A DNA stretch of 64,000 nt from an uncultured Thermotogae bacterium (GTDB lineage: Bacteria > Bipolaricaulota > Bipolaricaulia > UBA7950 > UBA9294), in assembly GCA_964558595.1 (NCBI GenBank), contig CAZLER010000001.1:39779-103778 (forward strand), given 5' to 3'. The position numbers and the translations under genes were made by a program. The notes under the pieces were generated by a model. That model worked only from the letters and a program-made list of their open reading frames with translations, was not told the DNA's origin and did no database searches. Below, piece after piece: positions 1 to 9,210 of the stretch; position 1 is the first letter of the stretch, and each line of letters starts with the position of its first letter.

Positions 1-902
1 GGCCGGAAGCTGTTGAGGATCCGCAGCGGAATTCTGCTGCGGATGATCGGGCGGATCGTGCGCGGATGGAGCACCTCGGCCCCGAACCGCGCCAGCTTGG
101 CCGCCTCCTCGTACGAAAGCTCCTCGAGTGTGCGGGCCCTCGGCACCAGGTGGGGGTCGGCGGAGAGGATCCCGTCGACGTCGGTCCAGATCCAGAGCTC
201 GTTCGCCGCGAGACCCGCAGCGACGAGGGCGGCGCTCCGATCGCTGCCGCTGCGACCCAGGGTGGTGGTCACCCCTCCATCGGTCGCGGCGATGAACCCG
301 GTGACTACCGGCACACCTCCACCCTCCACCATCGGGGCGATCTCGCTTGCGATCCGCTCGCAGGTCGCCGACATCCGCGGTGTGGCGCTCCCGAACCGGT
401 CATCGGTGACGATCACGTGGTCTGCCTCGACGGCCGTCGCCGGCAGACGATGCGCGCGCAACGTCGCCGCCAGCAGATCGGCGGACAGACGCTCGCCGCA
501 CGCCATCACCGCGTCGCCACTTCGGGGGGTCAGCTCGCCGAGCACGGCCAGACTGTCGTACAGCCTCTCGAGCCGGGCCAGCCGCTCGTCGAGCCGGCCG
601 GAGAACGCACGGCGCTCCGTCGGCGCCAACAACGCGGCCGCCACGCTGGCGTGGCGTTCGCGCAGCTCCGACAGCACCGCGCAGGGCTCGGTACGTTCGC
701 CGGTTGCGGCGTGGCGGGCCGCCGCCATCAGCCGGTCGGTTACCCCACCCATCGCCGAGACGACGACCACCGGGCGGACGGGACGTTCGATCTGTTCGCC
801 GACGATCTGCGTTACTCGGCGGAACCCGTCGGCATCGGCAATCGATGTCCCCCCGAATTTGTGAACGATCAGCGGGGAACGGTCGAGGTTCGGTCGACCC
901 AT
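1..902 (-). CDS. ask: aspartate kinase (partial; C-terminal part lies beyond window start)
   Basis: Own translation of minus strand from ATG at 902: MGRPNLDRSPLIVHKFGGTSIADADGF..SGSDRSAALVAAGL..WTDVDGILSADP, classic aspartokinase N-terminal kinase motifs; not in supplied ORF track because it runs off the window edge; start directly follows stop of upstream gene (TGA-ATG). Confidence 0.85.
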   Translation of the reverse strand, partial: MGRPNLDRSPLIVHKFGGTSIADADGFRRVTQIVGEQIERPVRPVVVVSAMGGVTDRLMAAARHAATGERTEPCAVLSELRERHASVAAALLAPTERRAFSGRLDERLARLERLYDSLAVLGELTPRSGDAVMACGERLSADLLAATLRAHRLPATAVEADHVIVTDDRFGSATPRMSATCERIASEIAPMVEGGGVPVVTGFIAATDGGVTTTLGRSGSDRSAALVAAGLAANELWIWTDVDGILSADPHLVPRARTLEELSYEEAAKLARFGAEVLHPRTIRPIIRSRIPLRILNSFR

Positions 903-2093
903 TCAGATCGCCTCCCCGCTGGGCAGCCCGTCCAACGCCCGCTTGAGGTCCTCGATCAGATCATCGGCCGCCTCGATCCCGACGGCATAGCGGATCAGGG
1001 CATCGGACACGCCATGGGCGGCGCGCTGGGCCGGGTCGCGCGCGATGAACATCGCCTGCGGCTGGGCGATGCTTTCCACGCCGCCGAGCGTCGGCCCCAC
1101 TGCGGTCAGGTCGAGGCGATCGATGCACGCGGCCGCGGCGTCGAGTCCGCCCCACAATTCGAAGCTGACCACGCCGCCGTACCCCGACAGCAACCGCCGG
1201 GCGGTCTCATGATCCGGGTGGGAGGGCAACCCGGGGTAGTGGACGCGGCCCACCGCGGGGTGATGTTCGAGGAAGCCGGCCAGACGAGAAGCCGTCGCAT
1301 TCTGCCGCTCGACGCGGAGCGCCAGCGTCTTCAGTCCCCGCAGCAACAGATACGCGTCCAACGGTCCGGATACGCCGCCGAGGACACCGCGAGTTCGCTC
1401 GATCGGAGCGATCCGCTCCGCCGAGCCGATCACCGCACCCGCCAGCAGATCGTTGTGGCCCCCGAGGTACTTCGTCGCACTGTGGAGCACGACGTCGGCG
1501 CCGTGCTCGAGCGGGCGCAGGTTGATCGGCGTGGCGAACGTTGCATCGACGATGCTGGTCCATCCTCGGCGGCGGGCCACCGACACGATGCGCGCCACGT
1601 CCGGAACGCGAAGGTACGGATTCGTCGGAATCTCGAAGTACACGACCCGCGTCGTCGGTCGCGCCACATCCTCGAGCGCATCCGCTGGGACGATCGACAC
1701 CTCGATGCCCCATCGAGCGAGATCCTCGGTGAAGAACGCCTTCGTCTTGCGATACAGCCCTTCAACCGCGACCAGATGATCACCCGCCTCCAGCGTCGCC
1801 AGCAGCGCCGTGGTAATCGCCGCCATCCCGCTGGAGAACAACAACGCCCGTTCCCCGCCGTCCAGGTCGGCCACCCGGCGCTCGGCCTCTTCCTGGGTCG
1901 GGTTCCCATACCGACCGTATTCGTACCGGGACCCCGGATCGCCGTCGTCCCGGCGCGCGACGTATTCCTGGATCTCTGCCGCGCTGCCAAAGGTGTACGT
2001 GGAGCTCATCACCACCGGCGTGACGAGCGCGTCGTACGCCATCGGTCGAGCCGCACCGGCGTGCACGGCTCTCGTATCCAGTCGTCCCTCCAT
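903..2093 (-). CDS. cystathionine gamma-synthase / O-succinylhomoserine sulfhydrylase family PLP enzyme (Cys/Met metabolism)
   Basis: ORF 903..2120; Cys/Met-metabolism PLP-enzyme signature incl. HSATKYLGGH (pyridoxal-Lys); track start 2120 is TTG, internal ATG at 2093 has strong RBS GAAGGAGGG 6 nt upstream. Confidence 0.85.
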   Translation of the reverse strand: MEGRLDTRAVHAGAARPMAYDALVTPVVMSSTYTFGSAAEIQEYVARRDDGDPGSRYEYGRYGNPTQEEAERRVADLDGGERALLFSSGMAAITTALLATLEAGDHLVAVEGLYRKTKAFFTEDLARWGIEVSIVPADALEDVARPTTRVVYFEIPTNPYLRVPDVARIVSVARRRGWTSIVDATFATPINLRPLEHGADVVLHSATKYLGGHNDLLAGAVIGSAERIAPIERTRGVLGGVSGPLDAYLLLRGLKTLALRVERQNATASRLAGFLEHHPAVGRVHYPGLPSHPDHETARRLLSGYGGVVSFELWGGLDAAAACIDRLDLTAVGPTLGGVESIAQPQAMFIARDPAQRAAHGVSDALIRYAVGIEAADDLIEDLKRALDGLPSGEAI

Positions 2094-2115
2094 GCCATCC
2101 CTCCTTCGATCCCAG

Positions 2116-2153
2116 CCCAAAACAAAAACGGACCGCGGGATCTCCCGCAGTCC
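2116..2153 (-). terminator. intrinsic-terminator-like hairpin + U-tract inside the 5' leader of the metB-family gene (attenuator candidate)
   Basis: minus-strand GGAC(T)GCGGGA-ga-TCCCGCGGTCC followed by GTTTTTGTTTTGGG, ending c. 25 nt before RBS/ATG 2093. Confidence 0.45.
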
Positions 2154-2183
2154 GCACTCGCTCCCGGCCCGGCGCCTCCTTGG

Positions 2184-2216
2184 CTACCGGAACGCAGCGA
2201 GCGACATCATCATCAT
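2184..2216 (-). CDS. candidate leader peptide MMMMSLAAFR (four consecutive Met codons)
   Basis: minus-strand ATG ATG ATG ATG TCG CTC GCT GCG TTC CGG TAG located between promoter-like element and terminator hairpin upstream of met/asp-family genes; no clear SD. Confidence 0.35.
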   Translation of the reverse strand: MMMMSLAAFR

Positions 2217-2294
2217 GACCGCGCCAGCGAACGTGCCTGCAGCGACGACGTTCGGCTCGATGGGCGACGCGCTCGAGATGATCATATCGTGGCG

Positions 2295-2322
2295 ATTATA
2301 GCGGAGGCGGAGGGCTCGGCAA
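2295..2322 (-). promoter_or_regulatory. putative sigma70-like promoter (TTGCCG-16nt-TATAAT) for metB-family/ask transcript
   Basis: minus-strand TTGCCG (2322-2317) and TATAAT (2300-2295) with 16-nt spacer, c. 170 nt upstream of ATG 2093. Confidence 0.35.
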
Positions 2323-2335
2323 GCGCCGCCGGTCG

Positions 2336-3196
2336 TTACGCAGGACGGTCGACACCGGCGATCGGTCCGCCCGACGGCTCGCCGAGCTCGGCCAGGGCCG
2401 TCTCCAGCTGCACCTCGGACAGCGCACCGTGATGCCACTTGGGATCGTCCTCCATGAACGAAACCCCTTTGCCAAGGACGGTGTGGGCCGCAATCGCCGT
2501 GGGCACACCGGACCCCCGTGCCGCAAGGAACGACGTGAACGCCGACATGATCTCCTCGATGTCGTGGCCATCGATCTCGCGGACGTTCCACCCGAACGCG
2601 CGAAGTTTCCCGGCGAGATCGCCGACGTCCATGACGTCGCACGTCCGGCCGTCGATCTGGCATCCGTTCCAGTCGAGCATCAGGCAGAGGTTGTCCGCAC
2701 GATGATGGACGGCGGCGGTGGCCGCCTCCCACGGCTGACCCTCCTGCAACTCGCCGTCGGAGACGAAGGTGTAGATCCGCGCGTCGCGGCGGGCCAGCTT
2801 CGCCCCCAGCGCCATGCCGAGCGCCACCGACAACCCGTTGCCGAGCGAGCCCGCCGAGGCTTCCACGCCGGGGACGTTCCATGCCGTGGAGGGGTGTCCC
2901 TGCAGCATCGATCCCAACGTGCGGAACCGCCACAGCTCCTCGCGAGGGAGATAGCCGCGGTCGGCGAGGATCGCGTAGAGGATCGGACAGGTATGCCCGT
3001 TGGACAGGATGAACCGATCCCGATCGACCCACCGGGGATCGCGGGGATCGTGCCGAAGGTACCGGTAGTAGAGCACCGTGAGCAGATCGGCCATGCCGAG
3101 GGCGCCCCCCGGATGCCCGGAGGAGGCATGGGTTACCATCCGCAGCACGTCGGATCGCAACGCGTTGGCCTTCCGCTTCAGCTCGGCGACCTCCAC
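2336..3196 (-). CDS. transketolase N-terminal (TPP-binding) subunit of split-type transketolase
   Basis: 286 aa; GHPGGALGMADL TPP-binding motif and LMLDWNGCQIDG region; no C-terminal subunit gene adjacent. Confidence 0.8.
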   Translation of the reverse strand: MEVAELKRKANALRSDVLRMVTHASSGHPGGALGMADLLTVLYYRYLRHDPRDPRWVDRDRFILSNGHTCPILYAILADRGYLPREELWRFRTLGSMLQGHPSTAWNVPGVEASAGSLGNGLSVALGMALGAKLARRDARIYTFVSDGELQEGQPWEAATAAVHHRADNLCLMLDWNGCQIDGRTCDVMDVGDLAGKLRAFGWNVREIDGHDIEEIMSAFTSFLAARGSGVPTAIAAHTVLGKGVSFMEDDPKWHHGALSEVQLETALAELGEPSGGPIAGVDRPA

Positions 3197-3303
3197 CGGT
3201 ATTCCCCCTTTCGCGTCCCGGCCAGATCATATCGGTTCGGGGGCCGCGGTGGTAGCCGTCGCAGCTCCTGCCGTACCATCGCACAGAGAGGGGATGATCC
3301 GGC

Positions 3304-3777
3304 ATGATCGAGGCGACGTTGTGCTTCCTCCTCGAGGGGGTTCCACCGAAGAGGATCCTCCTCGGGCGGAAGAAGCGGGGGTTCGGCCGAGGGAAGCTGA
3401 ACGGGTTTGGCGGGAAGCTCCTTCCCGGCGAGACGCCGTTGCAGGCGACCGTTCGCGAGGTCCACGAGGAGGTCGGCCTCCGCGTGGCACCGGGTGCCCT
3501 CCGACCGGCCGGGACCGTGAGGTTCGTCTTCCCGGTGGAGCCGGCGTTCGATCATCACGTTCACGTGTTCCTCGCCGTGCGCTGGGAAGGCACCGTCCAG
3601 GAAACCGCCGAGATGGCGCCCTCCTGGGTTCCGATCGATGCGATTCCCTACCACGAGATGTGGGCTGACGATCCGTACTGGCTGCCGCGGGTGCTCGCCG
3701 GCGACCGGATCCGTGCCGAATTCGTGTTCGCCGAGGACAACGAAACGGTCGCATCGTACACGATCGATGACCTATAG
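3304..3777 (+). CDS. Nudix hydrolase (MutT-like)
   Basis: 157 aa with Nudix box GKLLPGETPLQATVREVHEEVGL (GX5EX7REUXEEXGU). Confidence 0.8.
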   Translation: MIEATLCFLLEGVPPKRILLGRKKRGFGRGKLNGFGGKLLPGETPLQATVREVHEEVGLRVAPGALRPAGTVRFVFPVEPAFDHHVHVFLAVRWEGTVQETAEMAPSWVPIDAIPYHEMWADDPYWLPRVLAGDRIRAEFVFAEDNETVASYTIDDL

Positions 3778-3783
3778 GACGGT

Positions 3784-5691
3784 TCAGCGCCTCCCTTCCG
3801 AGACAGCGGCCGACTCGAAGGTGAACCGCCCCTCTCGGAACAAGCGGAGACAGGCGTCGGTGACCTCCACGTCGTATCGAGTTCCCCGGTGGCGCTCGAT
3901 CTCGTCGAGTGCCAGGTCGATCCCGAGCGCGGCCCGATACGGCCGGTGCGAGGCCATCGCTTCGACGGTATCGGCGACCGCGAGGACGCGCGCCTCGATG
4001 AGGATCTCCTCGCCGGATAGACCCTGCGGATATCCCGTGCCGTCGACCCGCTCGTGATGCTGCAAAACGATCTTCGCCAACGGCCACGGAAACGTCACCG
4101 TCTTGAGGATGTCGTAGGCAGCGCTCGGGTGCGATTCCATCAGGGCCATCTCCGTAGGGGACAGCGCGCTGGGCTTACTCAGGATCTCGGCGGGAATCGC
4201 CATCTTCCCGATGTCGTGCATCAGCCCCGCGGCGCGAATCCCCTCGATCTGCTCCTCATCGAGCGCCAGCTCCTCGGCCATCGCCACCGCCAGCGCCGTG
4301 ACGCGCCGCTGATGTCCGGCGGTGTACGGGTCGCGCGTCTCGGTCGTACGACCGATCGCCTCGATCGTCCCCTGGAGCGCCGCCTGCAGCGCCCCCTCGG
4401 CTTCCACCGTCGCCGTGATGTCCAACTTCGACACGAGAACGCGGGCATAGGTGTCTTCGAAGCCGGGAGGGACCGCCCACCGAACGGCGACGTGCATCAA
4501 CGATCCGTCGAACCGCCGATCGGTTCCGGTGCTCTCGAAGTAGGTCTTCCCCTCCGCAATCCCCACCAGCTGTTCGATGAACTGGGGCCGGGATGACACC
4601 GGAATGATCTGGGATAGGTTTCCCCGCAGTTCCTCCTTGTCGGCGGCGGCGTGCATGGCGACGGTCGCTTGGTTGACGTCGACGATGAGGATCCGACGGA
4701 TGCATTCGTCGACCACCTCGGGATGCTCCTGCAGGTATTCGCGCAGATCGTCGATTCCCTCGGCGCGCAGCCCGTCGAGCAACCGTTTCGTCTCCGAGTA
4801 GTCCTCCTGCCACAACGAGATCGGCGAGTTCTCGAACAGGGTGCGATACCGGACCTCGCTCTCTTCCAGTGCCCGTTCCGCCGCCACCCGCTCGGTGATA
4901 TCCCCGGCGAAGTGGAGGACCGCCGGTCGGCCGTCCCAGTCGATGACCACCGAGCGAATCTCGAGCCATCGCACGGCGCCACTGGACGCCACCATGCGGA
5001 TCTCCTCGCGCGACGCCACCTCCTCGCCGTCCAGCCGCCGACGCTGCCGATCCAGCATCGCCGGACGGTCTTCGGGATGGATCAGCTCCGGGGCGGACAG
5101 CTGGGCCAGTTGTGTCGGGTTGTAGCCGGTAATCTCGATCGTCTTGGGATTGGCGAATCGGATCCGATCCTCCTGGATGACGAACACCGCCTCGTTGGCG
5201 TTCTCGACCACCGTACGGTACTTCGTCTCGCTCTCCTCGAGCGCCCGGGCCGCCGCTTCGACCTGATTCTCCAGGTGGAGTCGCTGGAGGAGATCCTGGC
5301 GCTCTCGCTCCGCTCGGGCGTCGGCGAGCCGCTTGGCACGCACCGCGTCCTCGACGGCGGAACGGATCCGCTCCCCGGTAATCGGCTTGGCGAGGTAGTC
5401 GAACGCCCCTTCGCGGACCGCGCCCGCCGCCGTGTCGACGGTCGGCTCGCCGGTGATCATGATGACCGGCAGATCGGGACGGACCGCCTGGATCCGTCGC
5501 AGCAGGTCGACGCCCGTACCACCCGGGAGGATGATATCGGTGATCAGCACATCCAACACACTGTCGCGCAACAGCCGCAACGCCTCATCGGCGTCCTTGG
5601 CGGTGAGCGCCTCGTGCCCGGCGTCCTTGACGAACTCGCTCAGGGTCGTGCGGATGCTCTTCTCGTCGTCGACGATCAGGATCCTGGCCAT
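3784..5691 (-). CDS. response regulator receiver-PAS-PAS-HD-GYP phosphodiesterase
   Basis: ORF 3784..5730; receiver start MARILIVDDEKS (ATG 5691, RBS GAGGAG), two PAS-like segments, C-terminal HD-GYP motif HHERVDGTGYPQGL. Confidence 0.8.
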   Translation of the reverse strand: MARILIVDDEKSIRTTLSEFVKDAGHEALTAKDADEALRLLRDSVLDVLITDIILPGGTGVDLLRRIQAVRPDLPVIMITGEPTVDTAAGAVREGAFDYLAKPITGERIRSAVEDAVRAKRLADARAERERQDLLQRLHLENQVEAAARALEESETKYRTVVENANEAVFVIQEDRIRFANPKTIEITGYNPTQLAQLSAPELIHPEDRPAMLDRQRRRLDGEEVASREEIRMVASSGAVRWLEIRSVVIDWDGRPAVLHFAGDITERVAAERALEESEVRYRTLFENSPISLWQEDYSETKRLLDGLRAEGIDDLREYLQEHPEVVDECIRRILIVDVNQATVAMHAAADKEELRGNLSQIIPVSSRPQFIEQLVGIAEGKTYFESTGTDRRFDGSLMHVAVRWAVPPGFEDTYARVLVSKLDITATVEAEGALQAALQGTIEAIGRTTETRDPYTAGHQRRVTALAVAMAEELALDEEQIEGIRAAGLMHDIGKMAIPAEILSKPSALSPTEMALMESHPSAAYDILKTVTFPWPLAKIVLQHHERVDGTGYPQGLSGEEILIEARVLAVADTVEAMASHRPYRAALGIDLALDEIERHRGTRYDVEVTDACLRLFREGRFTFESAAVSEGRR

Positions 5692-5875
5692 CGCTCCTCT
5701 CGTCCGTATTCCGCGACCTTTCTGCCACACGACCGGAGCAGGGTGTTCGCCCTCCCGGACCGTCGTGACGCCGCTCGCGCACGCCAGCGTACTCCCAGGA
5801 AGGAGAAGCGGTCAACACGTCACGCGTCGTCGCCGGATCGCCGAACCGGTAGAATCCAGGGAGGGAGGTGCCGTG

Positions 5876-6985
5876 ATGGGCAGGCCGGCGGACCGCGGAG
5901 TGGACAGCGTCCGTCGCCGACCGAGGAGCTTTGGCATCGCGCCCGGCACCCTCCCAATCGGAGACGCCAACGCGATCAACGACGTGCCCGGCGTACTCGT
6001 CGGTCAGGTCAGCTTGATCGAGGGAGATGACGTCCGGACCGGCGCGACGGCGATCCTCCCCCACGACGGCAACCTCCTGCGGGAGCGGGTGCCGGCCGGG
6101 CTCGCCGTGGCCAACGGCCACGGGAAGATGATCGGCGTCACCCAGATCGTCGAGCTCGGCGAGCTCGAGACCCCGATTGTCCTCACCAACACGCTCGCCG
6201 TTCCCCGCGCCGCCGAAGCAATTCTCGACTGGACGCTGGCCCAACCCGGCAACGGAAACGCGGTGACGATCAACCCGGCCGTCGGGGAGACGAATGACGG
6301 TCGGCTGAACGTCATCGAGCGACGATCGCTGACCGTCGGGCAGATCCGCGCCGCGATCGAGGCCGCGACGACGGCGCCGATGACCGAGGGCTGCGTCGGC
6401 GCGGGAACGGGGACGGTAGCGATGGGATGGAAGGCGGGGATCGGGACCAGTTCACGCATCGTCGAGGTGGATCGCCCGCACACCGTCGGCGTGCTCGTCC
6501 AGACCAACTTCCCGGGGTCGCTCCACCTTCTCGGGGTCCCGGTCGGACGCCGGCTGGAGCGTCTCCGCGGCACCAGCGCGTCGGCCGAGGAGGCCGGCTC
6601 CATCGTCATCGTCGTGGCCACCGATGCGCCGCTGTCCGACCGCAACCTCACCCGCCTGGCGCGTCGCTCGTTCGCCGGCGTCGCCCGGGTCGGCGCCTCG
6701 TTCGCCAACGGATCCGGCGACTACGCGATCGCCTTTTCCACCGCCGAATCGGTTCGCCGGACCCCCCATCGGCGTGACCGCGAGTCGGCGATCCGCGAGC
6801 TGCCCAACGCGCGCGTATCCCCGCTGTTCGAAGCGACGATCGAGGCCACCGAGGAGGCGATCCTCAATGCCCTGTTCCTCGCCAGCACGATGACCGGACG
6901 CGATGGACGATGCGTCGAAGCGCTTCCCGTCGATCGCGTCGTCGCGATGTGGGACGACGCCCCGCATCTCGCCGTCGACGGATGA
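5876..6985 (+). CDS. DmpA/OAT-fold L-aminopeptidase/D-esterase family protein (peptidase S58)
   Basis: 369 aa from ATG 5876 (RBS GGGAGGTG); ...GTGTVAMGWKAGIGTSS... Thr-nucleophile autoprocessing region typical of DmpA family; upstream part of ORF 5432.. is Arg-rich junk. Confidence 0.7.
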   Translation: MGRPADRGVDSVRRRPRSFGIAPGTLPIGDANAINDVPGVLVGQVSLIEGDDVRTGATAILPHDGNLLRERVPAGLAVANGHGKMIGVTQIVELGELETPIVLTNTLAVPRAAEAILDWTLAQPGNGNAVTINPAVGETNDGRLNVIERRSLTVGQIRAAIEAATTAPMTEGCVGAGTGTVAMGWKAGIGTSSRIVEVDRPHTVGVLVQTNFPGSLHLLGVPVGRRLERLRGTSASAEEAGSIVIVVATDAPLSDRNLTRLARRSFAGVARVGASFANGSGDYAIAFSTAESVRRTPHRRDRESAIRELPNARVSPLFEATIEATEEAILNALFLASTMTGRDGRCVEALPVDRVVAMWDDAPHLAVDG

Positions 6986-7203
6986 ACGATCGACAACGGC
7001 TGTTCGATCGATGGGCCGCGTCGTACGACCTATCGACCGTGCGTGAGTCGTTCCCCTCGCTCGGCTACCGGACGGTGTTGCAGACCGTCGTCCGACTCGC
7101 CGAGGTCGGGCCGGGAGAGCGGCTGCTCGACGTCGGGATCGGGACCGGTAGCCTGGCCGAGCGGATCGCCGTAGCGGATGGGGGTTGGGACGACCGCTCT
7201 TGA
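6982..7203 (+). pseudogene. truncated class I SAM-dependent methyltransferase (only N-terminal c. 73 aa incl. motif I LLDVGIGTGSLA)
   Basis: ATG 6982 overlaps stop of upstream peptidase (ATGA); ORF ends at 7203 right after motif I, where the ilv-leader -35 element begins; no continuation in other frames. Confidence 0.5.
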
Positions 7204-7226
7204 CAAGCCGATCGAGTTGGTATAGC
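7200..7226 (+). promoter_or_regulatory. putative promoter of ilv leader transcript (TTGACA-15nt-TGgTATAGC, extended -10)
   Basis: TTGACA at c. 7200-7205 overlapping the stop of the MTase fragment; TGGTATAGC c. 7218-7226; c. 35 nt upstream of leader ATG. Confidence 0.35.
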
Positions 7227-7259
7227 GTAGGCTCAATCCAGCAGAGGCGTCGAGGAGCG

Positions 7260-7370
7260 ATGTCAGCGATGATCACGGACCGACGGTTGCCAGCAAGTCG
7301 AGTTCGCGCGCGATCCGTCCTTCTCGTCGTCGTCCTTGTCATTATCGTCCTAGTTATCGGAGGGCCATGA
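7260..7370 (+). CDS. branched-chain-amino-acid-rich leader peptide of ilvBNC-leu operon (MSAMITDRRLPASRVRARSVLLVVVLVIIVLVIGGP)
   Basis: ORF 7185..7370; 14 consecutive Val/Leu/Ile codons (7323-7361) immediately before stop; alternative start ATG 7269. Confidence 0.6.
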   Translation: MSAMITDRRLPASRVRARSVLLVVVLVIIVLVIGGP

Positions 7371-7438
7371 CCTGTTGGGCATAAACCTCTAGGCTCAAAG
7401 CGAAGGGGCCGCCCAACAGGGCGGCCCCTTTTTCTTTG
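7371..7438 (+). terminator. transcription attenuator: antiterminator segment CCTGTTGGG plus rho-independent terminator GGGGCCGCCC-aacag-GGGCGGCCCC-TTTTTCTTT
   Basis: perfect 10-bp GC stem with 5-nt loop and U-tract at c. 7405-7438; CCTGTTGGG (7371-7379) right after leader stop is exactly complementary to CCCAACAGG (7412-7420) in the terminator, giving mutually exclusive folds; 55 nt upstream of ilvB. Confidence 0.7.
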
Positions 7439-7494
7439 GGGCCGGAGACGAAGACGTGCGGTCGACACGACCGGCACGGCGGAGGAGGTGCACG

Positions 7495-9210
7495 GTGCGA
7501 AGGACAGGGGCACAAATCGTCTGGGAGATGCTGCGGCGGGAGGGGGTCGACGTCGTCTTCGGCATTCCCGGCGGGGGCATCATGCATACCTATCATCCCC
7601 GTCAGGAATATGGGATCCAGCATGTGCTGGTGCGCCACGAGCAAGCGGCCGCCCATGCCGCCGACGGATACGCCCGCGCCTCGGGACGGGTCGGTGTCGC
7701 CATCGCCACGTCCGGACCGGGGGCCACGAACCTGGTGACCGGAATCGCCACCGCGATGATGGACTCGTCTCCGATCGTGTGCATCACCGGACAGGTCAGC
7801 ACGTCGGTGCTGGGGACCGACGCGTTTCAGGAAGCCGACATCACCGGCATTACCCTGCCGATCACCAAACACAACTACCTGGTCACCGACGTCGACGAGC
7901 TTGCGGACACGATCCACGACGCGTTCCGGATCGCGCGCAGCGGTCGTCCGGGCCCGGTGCTCATCGATCTTCCCTCCGACGTGCAGCGCGCCGACACCAC
8001 GGTGCTCGATCCTCATTCCCCAGACGAGGAGGAGCGCCTGCCCACGGGCGATCCGGCCGCCCTCGAACGAGCGCTCGAACGGATCGATCGCGCCCACCGT
8101 CCGCTGATCCTCGCCGGCCGCGGCGTCCTGCTGTCCGGTGCGGTCGACGAGTTGGCCGCGTTCGCCGAGAAGACCCGTACGCCGGTCGCGGTGACCCTCC
8201 TCGGCAAGGGCTGCTTCTCTCCGTCCCACCCCCTGTACCTGGGGATGATGGGAATGCACGGGCATCCGGCCGCGAACCACGCGGTGCAGGAGGCGGATCT
8301 GCTGATCGCCCTGGGTATGCGGTTCGACGACCGCGTGACCGGCAACCCGACGCGCTACGCACCACAGGCTCGCATCATCCACATCGACATCGACCAGGCC
8401 GAGCTCGACAAGCTGATTCCCGCCGACATCGCGATCCACGCCGACCTGCGGCCGGCGCTCGCCGCGCTGGTCGAGCGAACGCGACCGCAGCAGCACGCGG
8501 CGTGGACGGCGAGAACGGAACGGTGGCAACGGGAGGCAACGGCTCACGATGTGCTGCACCGGTCGCCGGTTACCGATCTGCCGGCACCCCACATCATCCG
8601 GGCGATCTACGAGGTGACCGAGGGCAATGCGGTGTTGGTCACCGATGTCGGCCAGAATCAGATGTGGGCCGCCCAGTACTACGACACGGCGTGTCGCCGA
8701 CCGTTCCTGTCGTCCGGTGGCCTGGGGACGATGGGGTTCGGGCTGCCGGCGGCGATCGGGGCCCAGTTCGCGTGCCCCGACGAAGAGGTCTGGGCGATCG
8801 TCGGCGATGGCGGCTTCCAGATGAGCGTGCAAGAACTGGCAACGATCGCCCAGGAAGGCCTCCCCGTCAGGATTGCGCTGATCAACAACCGTTGCCTGGG
8901 GATGGTCCGCCAGTGGCAAACCTTGTTCTACGAAGGGCGGCATGAGGCGACCGATCTCGTCAACCCGGACTTCGTGCGCCTCGCCGAGGCCTACGGGATC
9001 CCCGCCCTCCGTGCCGGCGACCTGGCGACCGCACGAGCGGCCGTCGCCGATGCCCACGCTCGACGAGGCCCGGTTCTCATCGAATTCGAGGTCGCCCGCG
9101 ATGGCGAGGCAGGTCACGTCTACCCGATGGTGCCGGCGGGGGCTGCCCTCGATGCGATGATCCGGCGCACCCCGCTTCCGGCCGTGACCTCCTGCGGGAG
9201 GACACCGTGA
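7495..9210 (+). CDS. ilvB: acetolactate synthase large subunit
   Basis: ORF 7456..9210; GTG 7495 after RBS GGAGGAGG; TPP enzyme motifs (GIPGGGIMHTY.., ..GDGGFQM..). Confidence 0.9.
   Translation: MRRTGAQIVWEMLRREGVDVVFGIPGGGIMHTYHPRQEYGIQHVLVRHEQAAAHAADGYARASGRVGVAIATSGPGATNLVTGIATAMMDSSPIVCITGQVSTSVLGTDAFQEADITGITLPITKHNYLVTDVDELADTIHDAFRIARSGRPGPVLIDLPSDVQRADTTVLDPHSPDEEERLPTGDPAALERALERIDRAHRPLILAGRGVLLSGAVDELAAFAEKTRTPVAVTLLGKGCFSPSHPLYLGMMGMHGHPAANHAVQEADLLIALGMRFDDRVTGNPTRYAPQARIIHIDIDQAELDKLIPADIAIHADLRPALAALVERTRPQQHAAWTARTERWQREATAHDVLHRSPVTDLPAPHIIRAIYEVTEGNAVLVTDVGQNQMWAAQYYDTACRRPFLSSGGLGTMGFGLPAAIGAQFACPDEEVWAIVGDGGFQMSVQELATIAQEGLPVRIALINNRCLGMVRQWQTLFYEGRHEATDLVNPDFVRLAEAYGIPALRAGDLATARAAVADAHARRGPVLIEFEVARDGEAGHVYPMVPAGAALDAMIRRTPLPAVTSCGRTP

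Follow-up and report, generated by a model that had tools for sequence, protein, structure and literature searches.

The hallmarks of attenuation by a leader peptide are a leader open reading frame (ORF), a cluster of codons for the cognate amino acid, an intrinsic terminator before the first gene, and an antiterminator helix that excludes this terminator. The leader described here possesses the first three, and no conserved antiterminator was detected in it. In all characterised amino-acid attenuators (the trp, his, leu, thr, ilv and phe leaders), the position of the ribosome acts through alternative RNA helices. Methionine is a conspicuous gap among the amino acids with leader-peptide attenuation. 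The usual reasoning for this gap is that methionine starvation blocks initiation, and that S-adenosylmethionine (SAM) riboswitches, T-boxes and MetJ/MtaR-type repressors serve instead; to our knowledge, no methionine leader-peptide attenuator has been characterised. Here, we describe a computational analysis of a leader within a 64,000-nucleotide stretch of DNA from an uncultured bacterium (GenBank contig CAZLER010000001.1, positions 39,779 to 103,778). This whole stretch is termed the window, and its own coordinates are used throughout. The leader lies on the minus strand, upstream of a metB-family gene encoding a pyridoxal phosphate (PLP) enzyme and an aspartokinase gene (ask), and contains four consecutive methionine codons. 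Our preferred reading, in which we place about even confidence, is that it is a ribosome-mediated transcription attenuator sensing methionyl-tRNA(Met), in which a parked ribosome and the adjoining hairpin, hairpin II, block closure of the terminator.

Leaderless leader peptides have been reported in other bacteria. In mycobacteria, a polycysteine leaderless small ORF of ~30 codons, with the run near its 3' end, forms the first cistron of a biosynthetic operon. A ribosome stalled there prevents an attenuating fold in which the Cys tract pairs with the Shine-Dalgarno (SD) region of the next gene, a translational mechanism that needs no terminator (bioRxiv 10.1101/834739). In Streptomyces lividans, leaderless leader peptides are accompanied by hairpins and U stretches, and include a proposed methionine-responsive 'metL' before metNIQ (PMC8079986). 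In Escherichia coli, termination at tR2 falls from ~90% to <10% when a stop codon is shifted from 28 to 5 bp ahead of this terminator (PMC4824070). A full-text literature search returned no description of a Met-run leader peptide. Attenuation by leader peptide is itself a known kind of control; what is proposed here is its use for methionine, for which it is not known to have been described.

Anatomy and conservation of the methionine-run leader

An earlier reading, made from the letters of the window (the sequence-only reading), had proposed a promoter, a methionine-codon mini-ORF and an intrinsic terminator ahead of metB and ask, and had taken four consecutive Met codons in front of methionine/aspartate-family genes as the signature of ribosome-mediated attenuation. 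Direct inspection placed all of the named elements on the minus strand where that reading had put them: TTGCCG-16-TATAAT (2322-2295), the run of four ATG codons, the GC hairpin with its T-run, and the metB-family gene followed by the aspartokinase gene. The promoter is the sole match of its kind in 5 kb, with 0.5 expected. The segment ATG ATG ATG ATG TCG CTC GCT GCG TTC CGG TAG spans 2216-2184, and ATGATGATG has no second copy in the 64 kb window (0.49 expected). The terminator stem-loop, GCGGACTGCGGGAGATCCCGCGGTCCGT at 2155-2128, is followed by TTTTGTTTTG; one terminator-like site was found, against 1.6 expected. Each element alone is within chance, and the case therefore rests on the conservation of their combination in related loci. 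The protein starting at ATG 2093 belongs to the PLP-enzyme family listed in Table 1; the NCBIfam models for cystathionine gamma-synthase, sulfhydrylase and gamma-lyase match it below their cut-offs.

The mini-ORF had been described as 10 codons long. The frame leading from the four ATG codons to the TAG is real, but it belongs to an ORF of 33 codons whose start codon, ATG 2285-2283, stands 23 codons ahead of the run and exactly 9 nt past the -10 box; the Met run forms its codons 24-27. All nine distinct close leaders have an ATG at this distance from the -10, and from it a frame of 33-34 codons passes through (G/A)TG ATG ATG ATG to CGG TAG. Insertions and deletions among them occur only in multiples of 3, and the window leader differs by one 3-nt deletion. 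The distance from -10 to ATG is 9 nt in most homologous leaders and 7-10 nt overall, and in 32 of 32 distinct leaders this promoter-abutting ATG is in frame with the Met run with no stop between them; the other two frames contain stops in 31/32 and 16/32. A spacing of 9 nt leaves no room for an SD. If transcription starts ~7 nt downstream of the -10, the 5' untranslated region would measure 0-3 nt. The ORF is therefore probably leaderless, which explains why no SD precedes the mini-ORF. The sequence-only reading had correctly noted this absence, but what it counted as a weak point follows from the promoter-abutting start. The conservation of the frame suggests that the leader ORF is translated.

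The run in the window consists of four AUG codons and that of all relatives of (GUG)AUG x3. The extra fourth AUG and the 3-nt deletion shift the window run, and the third AUG consequently lies 6 nt before a conserved CUCGC core, which is the spacing of the last AUG in the other leaders of the same subfamily (A-type leaders). In the window, the leader ORF and the metB-family gene share a frame with no stop from TAG 2184 to ATG 2093, and readthrough of the UAG would fuse the two proteins. This frame relation varies among homologs (0, 1 or 2), and its occurrence in the window is probably a coincidence. Programmed frameshifting at the AUG run was considered and rejected: the +1 frame meets UGA at once and the -1 frame has early stops in loci L001, L085 and L086, so that no conserved alternative frame crosses the terminator.

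Related loci came from species-representative genomes, whose 80 best relatives of the PLP enzyme share 65% identity or less with it. Their labels are mostly those of metagenome-assembled genomes (MAGs) of Anaerolineae or Chloroflexota, and most have SAM-I riboswitch motifs, as read by motif, directly upstream; in 11 of 11 orthologous loci tested, Rfam confirmed a SAM-I riboswitch with 77-92 bits. Two of the loci, L001 and L002, bear leaders homologous to that of the window in place of SAM-I. The protein database contained an identical copy of the window enzyme and a group at 64-69% identity, and each of the eight loci examined from this group (L081-L092) carries a homologous leader. In these homologous leaders, the ATG-run ORF is conserved. 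In the window, Rfam covariance searches returned no match of any family to the leader at E<=1, no SAM riboswitch or T-box match at E<=1 within positions 1-8000, and no match at gathering score in the whole stretch, in agreement with the earlier statement that SAM-I motifs are lacking from this leader.

A metagenome scan with the pattern ATGATGATG-N40-70-GACTRCRGG-N2-14-CYGYGGTC, for which we estimate ~1-2 chance matches, returned 29 loci, of which 2 are chance matches inside genes. Each of the remaining 27 of 29 shows a -35/-10 promoter and, 7-10 nt past its -10, an in-frame ATG that opens an ORF of 30-37 codons; promoter, promoter-abutting ATG and ORF length formed no part of the pattern. Including that of the window, the 32 leaders comprise seven subfamilies of peptides (for example MITVKTQRTEQGVVVELSVGCVTVMMMRSLAPSR, MTVANGTMRKRDEISGLSDSRCRVSYMMMP and MNARGRASLVSQYSVEPSSVRVFAGMMMLVSA) in which MMM are the sole common residues. 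This conservation upholds the signature proposed from the window alone, and is that expected of a peptide in which only the regulatory Met codons matter. The seven subfamilies have only four features in common: the promoter-abutting start, the 30-37-codon ORF, the invariant MMM, and a stable hairpin before a conserved terminator.

The gene behind the leader is the PLP enzyme in most loci, the aspartokinase directly in L093 and L095, and, in subfamilies D and E, a transporter gene of the amino-acid-binding kind, which encodes a Peripla_BP_6 solute-binding protein with a signal peptide. The leader unit is always immediately upstream of, and co-oriented with, such a Met/Asp-family or binding-protein gene, at 24-80 nt from its SD. 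The order PLP enzyme, aspartokinase, aspartate-semialdehyde dehydrogenase (asd) and a gene of unknown function is found in 7/8 close relatives, and a transketolase N-subunit gene lies upstream in 6/8; L084 has neither this operon synteny nor the transketolase gene. The fourth gene, which falls past the window edge, follows metB-ask-asd in all relatives and encodes ~375-400 residues (L001:7725-8867). Its product has no Pfam, NCBIfam or PDB sequence match and contains VIIDIDKTAIG, resembling HAD-superfamily motif I (DxDxT); an enzymatic role in the homoserine/methionine branch that has so far escaped recognition is conceivable. In the window, the gene for the N-terminal half of transketolase (2336-3196, minus strand) ends 36 nt before the leader -10 box, and no terminator is visible between this gene and the leader promoter. 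It is not followed by a gene for the C-terminal half; the next co-directional gene is the met operon. In the D/E subfamilies (L098, L101, L104, L114, L117 and L120), another small ORF with an SD lies 40-110 nt past the terminator, ahead of the binding-protein gene. It opens with two Met codons (MMYMFISRK or MMYTFVSNTVIPYF, each followed by a stop) and could provide a second, translational tier of Met sensing. Elsewhere in the window, a perfect 10-bp GC hairpin (GGGGCCGCCC/GGGCGGCCCC) with a U-run at 7380-7434 on the plus strand gave sub-threshold Rfam matches to BjrC1505 (27 bits, E=0.06) and Phe_leader (E=0.9), and looks like an ordinary intrinsic terminator unrelated to the leader.

Table 1. 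Features of the leader and its operon in the window
Feature	Coordinates	Strand	Basis
-35-like hexamer TTGCCG	2317..2322	-	promoter scan; all homologous leaders have a TTG-type -35, at 16-18 nt upstream of the -10
-10 hexamer TATAAT	2295..2300	-	promoter scan; TATAAT, TACAAT or TATAGT in homologs (invariant or near-invariant)
Leader ORF, 33 codons + TAG, MIISSASPIEPNVVAAGTFAGAVMMMMSLAAFR, then stop	2184..2285	-	frame and length kept in 32/32 leaders
Helix I domain: transcript 5' end, including start codon, paired with codons before and within the Met run, around an inner hairpin	2204..2287	-	minimum free energy fold
Run of four AUG (Met) codons, proposed sensor codons	2205..2216	-	sequence; (V/M)MMM common to seven subfamilies
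Hairpin II: CGCUCGCU..CCGG[UAGCC..]CCGG..AGCGAGUG, ~-29 kcal/mol, stop UAG in apical part	2155..2203	-	predicted folds
Intrinsic terminator: 12-bp GC stem with invariant U.G wobble, then UUUUUGUUUUG	2118..2155	-	terminator scan, conservation
Candidate antiterminator arm 1 (rival model), 5' ORF segment UC-A-UCUCGAGCGCGUCGCCC	2262..2281	-	masked folding
Candidate antiterminator arm 2 (rival model), hairpin II 3' strand + terminator 5' strand	2141..2164	-	masked folding
SD of metB-family gene, GAAGGAGGG	2099..2107	-	direct sequence reading
Cys/Met-metabolism PLP enzyme (cystathionine gamma-synthase / sulfhydrylase family), first regulated gene	903..2093	-	Pfam PF01053, E=2.5e-120
Aspartokinase, second operon gene, runs off the window	1..902	-	translation

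Predicted folds and the search for an antiterminator

The predicted fold of all of the leaders consists of helix I, hairpin II and the terminator, which are compatible with one another. In an RNAalifold consensus of 15 A-type leaders, the nucleotides of the start codon in helix I pair with AUG codons of the run. The partner of the 5' end is ACC GUG AUG AUG, in which the window-specific change of GUG to AUG is compensated (CG to UA), and helix I encloses ~55 nt in the window fold. With the run paired to the transcript 5' end, the metB SD (2107-2099) lies downstream of the terminator and is unpaired to the run. In the non-A subfamilies, the Met run falls outside any helix resembling the P1 helix of a riboswitch, and the sequences of the 5' hairpins are unrelated between subfamilies.

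Hairpin II is present in per-sequence folds of 32/32 leaders, at -24 to -36 kcal/mol, with a stem sequence that differs by subfamily (for example GCUCGC/GCGAGC, ACCGCUUUGUUC/GAACAAGGCGGU and GUCCGCCU/AGGCGGAC). These stems are not alignable by sequence and were thus folded one by one; RNAalifold over all subfamilies recovers the terminator only. The apical UAGC of hairpin II is invariant whatever the reading frame, and coincides with the stop codon in some subfamilies only. Its position relative to its neighbours is tightly kept. In 22/32 leaders, 5 nt separate the last AUG from the foot of hairpin II, and in 28/32 the gap between its 3' foot and the first terminator pair is 0-3 nt (0-6 nt overall, and 0-1 nt in most A-type leaders). 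The distance from the run to the terminator is consequently 52-60 nt along the sequence and 1-11 single-stranded nt once hairpin II is folded. The complementarity of GCTCGCT within the ORF to AGCGAG before the terminator, which the sequence-only reading had put forward as a source of alternative folds, is the foot of hairpin II, and in every predicted fold it coexists with the terminator.

The terminator of every member has a GC stem of 11-12 bp and a U-run. Compensatory changes occur at 4/11 pairs, and a central U.G wobble is kept in 29/29 sequences. The stem GGACU(G/A)C(A/G)GG / CC(U/C)G(C/U)GGUCC (2129-2154 in the window) is kept across all 32 leaders, in leader regions of ~49-67% GC. Conservation of this order in the sequence of a stem is unusually strong for a terminator. 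Across 0.98 Mb of related loci, the motif never occurred apart from a Met run. The A-type leaders show a likeness to the 5' strand of the terminator in codons 8-13 (CGN ACC GAG CAG GGA) and to its 3' strand in the codons that directly precede the run. These resemblances, together with the invariant stem and UAGC, could reflect common descent, an alternative pairing that was not detected, or a binding partner.

Folding under constraint, which had been proposed as a means of distinguishing terminator from antiterminator, was carried out with a ribosome mask (P-12 to P+15) set on each AUG or on the stop codon. The terminator was predicted in all states in full-length folds of the nine first homologs, and was ahead by 15-23 kcal/mol in every ribosome state. 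When the 3' strand of the terminator was left out of the folds, a long alternative duplex appeared in the window leader only, with 19 bp and only with the ribosome on the run. Duplexes between the 5' segment and the terminator had no advantage over shuffled sequences (z of -2 to +2; z = +0.4 for the window) and were not conserved. Each leader was also scanned for a copy of the terminator 3' strand that might pair best with the 5' strand. The matches were weak (-8 to -16 kcal/mol), followed no consistent register and fell either directly ahead of the run or within the hairpin II 5' strand; the linker varies, whereas the terminator facing it is invariant. Complementarity of the hairpin II 3' strand to the U-run was at chance (mean z 0.01 against shuffles, the tail window of B-type leaders being cut 2 nt late).

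The same masking recovered a textbook antiterminator in a positive control, L076, where the segment right after the Met cluster copies the 3' strand of the terminator. Since this control was recovered, the absence of a detected antiterminator in the Met-run leader family is meaningful, though not final. The L076 leader (~430-620) is a leaderless Met-rich ORF, MTARLALCWMMFMRMMMPRSRAWAVAPLQR (WMMFMRMMM), unrelated to the Met-run family and situated before an orthologous PLP-enzyme gene. Further unrelated, Met-rich leader ORFs precede orthologous genes in Bellilinea (L045 and L042, ~3700-3990; ...LSLMAMMMAMVMRG..., MAMMMAMVM), that of Bellilinea caldifistulae L045 being an SD-led ORF of 38 codons with 7 Met in 10 residues, and in L004 (~3760-3990), where the ORF MSRLTPRRTDTGRMIM, ending in a stop codon, has a hairpin directly after it. 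Met-codon attenuation seems to have arisen several times in the Anaerolineae.

Models for the coupling of the ribosome to the terminator

To the observed anatomy, gene association and compatibility of folds, our preferred reading adds a start site, ribosome stalling, a direction of regulation and a steric coupling that we infer. Transcription from TTGCCG/TATAAT would start at, or 1-3 nt before, the AUG of the 33-codon ORF, and the initiating ribosome would meet the four AUG codons (24-27), with hairpin II immediately beyond and the terminator at its 3' foot. With sufficient Met-tRNA, the ribosome would clear the run, unzip hairpin II, leaving its 3' strand slack, and depart at the UAG; the terminator would then form and metB-ask-asd would be off. 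In RNA that is not translated, helix I, hairpin II and the terminator would all form and termination would again result, a state that would also stop read-in from the upstream transketolase gene, which lacks a terminator of its own. When Met-tRNA is scarce, the ribosome would park on the run, with hairpin II folded and its foot at the mRNA entrance, only ~1-11 single-stranded nt from the first terminator pair. RNA polymerase (RNAP) would be unable to take in the bottom pairs of the terminator beside this block of ribosome and hairpin, and readthrough into the operon would follow. That the operon is on at low Met is suggested because SAM-I riboswitches control the orthologs and the genes are biosynthetic.

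The spacing of these elements bears on this scheme. The helicase site of the ribosome lies ~+11 nt from the first P-site nucleotide, and with a 5-nt linker a ribosome waiting at any AUG would leave hairpin II intact. With the last AUG in the A site, the foot of hairpin II would be exactly at the mRNA entrance, and the next translocation would begin to unzip it. A ribosome close to an intrinsic terminator represses it in the tR2 series and in pyrBI-type coupling. As the terminator begins 0-6 nt after hairpin II, the parked ribosome would effectively be within the 10-15 nt zone that abolishes termination. The terminator is compatible with all other helices in every masked fold, and a non-classical coupling is therefore needed. 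The specific form that we propose, a mechanically coupled attenuator without an antiterminator helix, in which hairpin II bridges the ribosome to the foot of the terminator and helix I limits sensing to one pioneer ribosome per transcript, is tentative, and we hold it possible rather than probable. Several points weigh against the preferred reading. The steric model has no direct precedent for an intervening hairpin, and in several subfamilies 3-6 nt separate hairpin II from the terminator, which would weaken a purely steric effect. It also leaves unaccounted for the invariant terminator stem (U.G in 29/29) and the apical UAGC, which hint at an unrecognised pairing or binding partner. Leaderless initiation is deduced from the fixed spacing between -10 and ATG. 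Starvation for Met would limit fMet-tRNA as well, reducing initiation on the leader and favouring termination. Finally, the metagenome scan demanded both a Met run and a terminator, and their co-occurrence in the loci it returned is not independent evidence.

The foremost alternative in mechanism is an attenuator with alternative helices, in which the parked ribosome would occupy the 3' strand of helix I, leaving the 5' ORF segment (2281-2262) free to pair as an antiterminator with 2164-2141; after the ribosome departs, helix I would re-form and the terminator would close. The 19-bp duplex of the window, which joins codons 2-8 to the 3' strand of hairpin II and the 5' strand of the terminator under a run-masked ribosome, is what this model predicts, as is the window fold with the ribosome at the stop codon, in which helix I re-forms and the terminator 5' strand is free. 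The 5' end of some B-type leaders (ACUGUGGC / ACCGCGGU) copies the 3' strand of the terminator with an apparent co-change of A-U to G-C, and the recovery of a textbook antiterminator in the independent Met leader L076 speaks for the same arrangement, as does its use by all characterised amino-acid attenuators. We nevertheless consider this model unlikely: its duplexes are no stronger than those of shuffled controls, the pairing is not conserved (codons 8-13 of A-type leaders mimic rather than complement the terminator 5' strand), and the terminator prevails in full-length folds by the wide energy difference given above. Alternatively, folded hairpin II might itself be the antiterminator, through exclusion from the exit channel or by binding RNAP in the manner of the put RNA of phage HK022. 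Termination would then need a ribosome that has passed MMM and unzips hairpin II while RNAP is at the terminator, and both failed initiation for lack of fMet-tRNA and stalling at MMM would lead to readthrough. Such a mechanism would avoid super-attenuation under limiting initiator tRNA, which is the usual argument against Met attenuators. Whether hairpin II is intact or open is the sole structural difference between a ribosome before and past MMM, its gap to the terminator is 0-1 nt in most A-type leaders, its frame-independent invariant UAGC suggests recognition by a macromolecule, and the leaderless start codon is shut away in helix I as soon as the run has been transcribed. Against these stand the intact terminator in folds of untranslated RNA, the escape from regulation of untranslated read-in from the transketolase gene, the tight synchrony of ribosome and RNAP that efficient shut-off would need, and the lack of a put-like motif, for which no aimed test was made; we regard a mechanism of this kind as quite improbable.

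Two further explanations would dispense with a sensing ribosome. The leader could be a metabolite riboswitch with SAM, methionine or a related compound as its ligand; AUGAUGAUG would then form one strand of a P1-like helix, and the ORF would be incidental. The Met run does pair with the 5' end in a long helix around ~55 nt, and the leader occupies the position of SAM-I riboswitches in relatives. This is scarcely credible given that Rfam finds no match, that neither the sequence nor the fold of the enclosed region is shared between subfamilies, that the run lies outside such a helix in the non-A subfamilies, and that frame, start and length of the ORF are kept in 32/32 leaders with 3-nt indels. 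The conservation of frame and MMM alone, without a conserved core, argues for a leader peptide and not a riboswitch. The compact unit of promoter, ORF and terminator might also be an independent small gene or a small RNA acting elsewhere, with the operon fed by unregulated leakage through the terminator; the peTrpL peptide and rnTrpL attenuator RNA of Sinorhizobium reportedly have functions in trans. We judge this very improbable, since the peptides are unrelated between subfamilies save for MMM, and the unit always lies directly upstream of co-oriented Met/Asp or binding-protein genes with no room for another promoter.

Comparison with known attenuators

If the leader acts by mechanical coupling as we tentatively propose, it would be the first natural methionine attenuator and would represent a new way of transmitting the position of a ribosome to RNAP. 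For the leader family in general, charged tRNA(Met), besides SAM, could be a controlling signal, and the leader would offer a concrete, mutable system for studying how an attenuator copes with the initiator-tRNA problem. Its three compatible hairpins, exact 5-nt spacing and lack of a detectable antiterminator make it a test case for regulation by the proximity of ribosome and RNAP, and its sequence signature could serve to annotate methionine regulons in uncultured Chloroflexota-like genomes.

The Met-run leader resembles the classical attenuators (trpL, hisL, leuL, thrL, pheL and ilvL of Proteobacteria and the trp, leu and ilv leaders of Actinobacteria) in that its terminator lies between the ORF and the structural genes and its stop codon lies at or inside the next helix. 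It differs from them in sensing, as we propose, methionine; in its ORF, which is probably leaderless and is longer (30-37 codons), with ~24 codons before the run; and in that the helix after the run shares no nucleotides with the terminator and no overlapping antiterminator was detected. In tR2 and pyrBI, the ribosome stands within ~10-15 nt of the terminator foot, linearly close, and blocks the last pairs to cause readthrough. In the Met-run leader, in contrast, 52-60 nt of sequence would lie between the two, and only folded hairpin II would bring them together, a bridging role that we propose. With the mycobacterial polycysteine ORF, our leader shares a leaderless ORF of ~30 codons and a late codon run. 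Here the run pairs with its own 5' end, the metB SD is free and a canonical terminator is the output; the amino acid and the phylum also differ, the present leaders being from Chloroflexota-like MAGs. The nearest case in the literature is the S. lividans metL (MSTTSDRTPATEATTTPGARCMCRRMCAF), a single-genome prediction with scattered Met codons, no run and no clear terminator (PMC8079986), which has no similarity in sequence or structure to the Met-run leader family. Finally, SAM-I (RF00162) occupies the same position before the orthologous PLP-enzyme gene in the 11/11 loci and also ends in an intrinsic terminator. It senses SAM by a conserved aptamer, whereas the window leader has no aptamer and its proposed sensor is a translated ORF; the two presumably share the same logic, in which the operon is repressed when methionine or SAM is plentiful.

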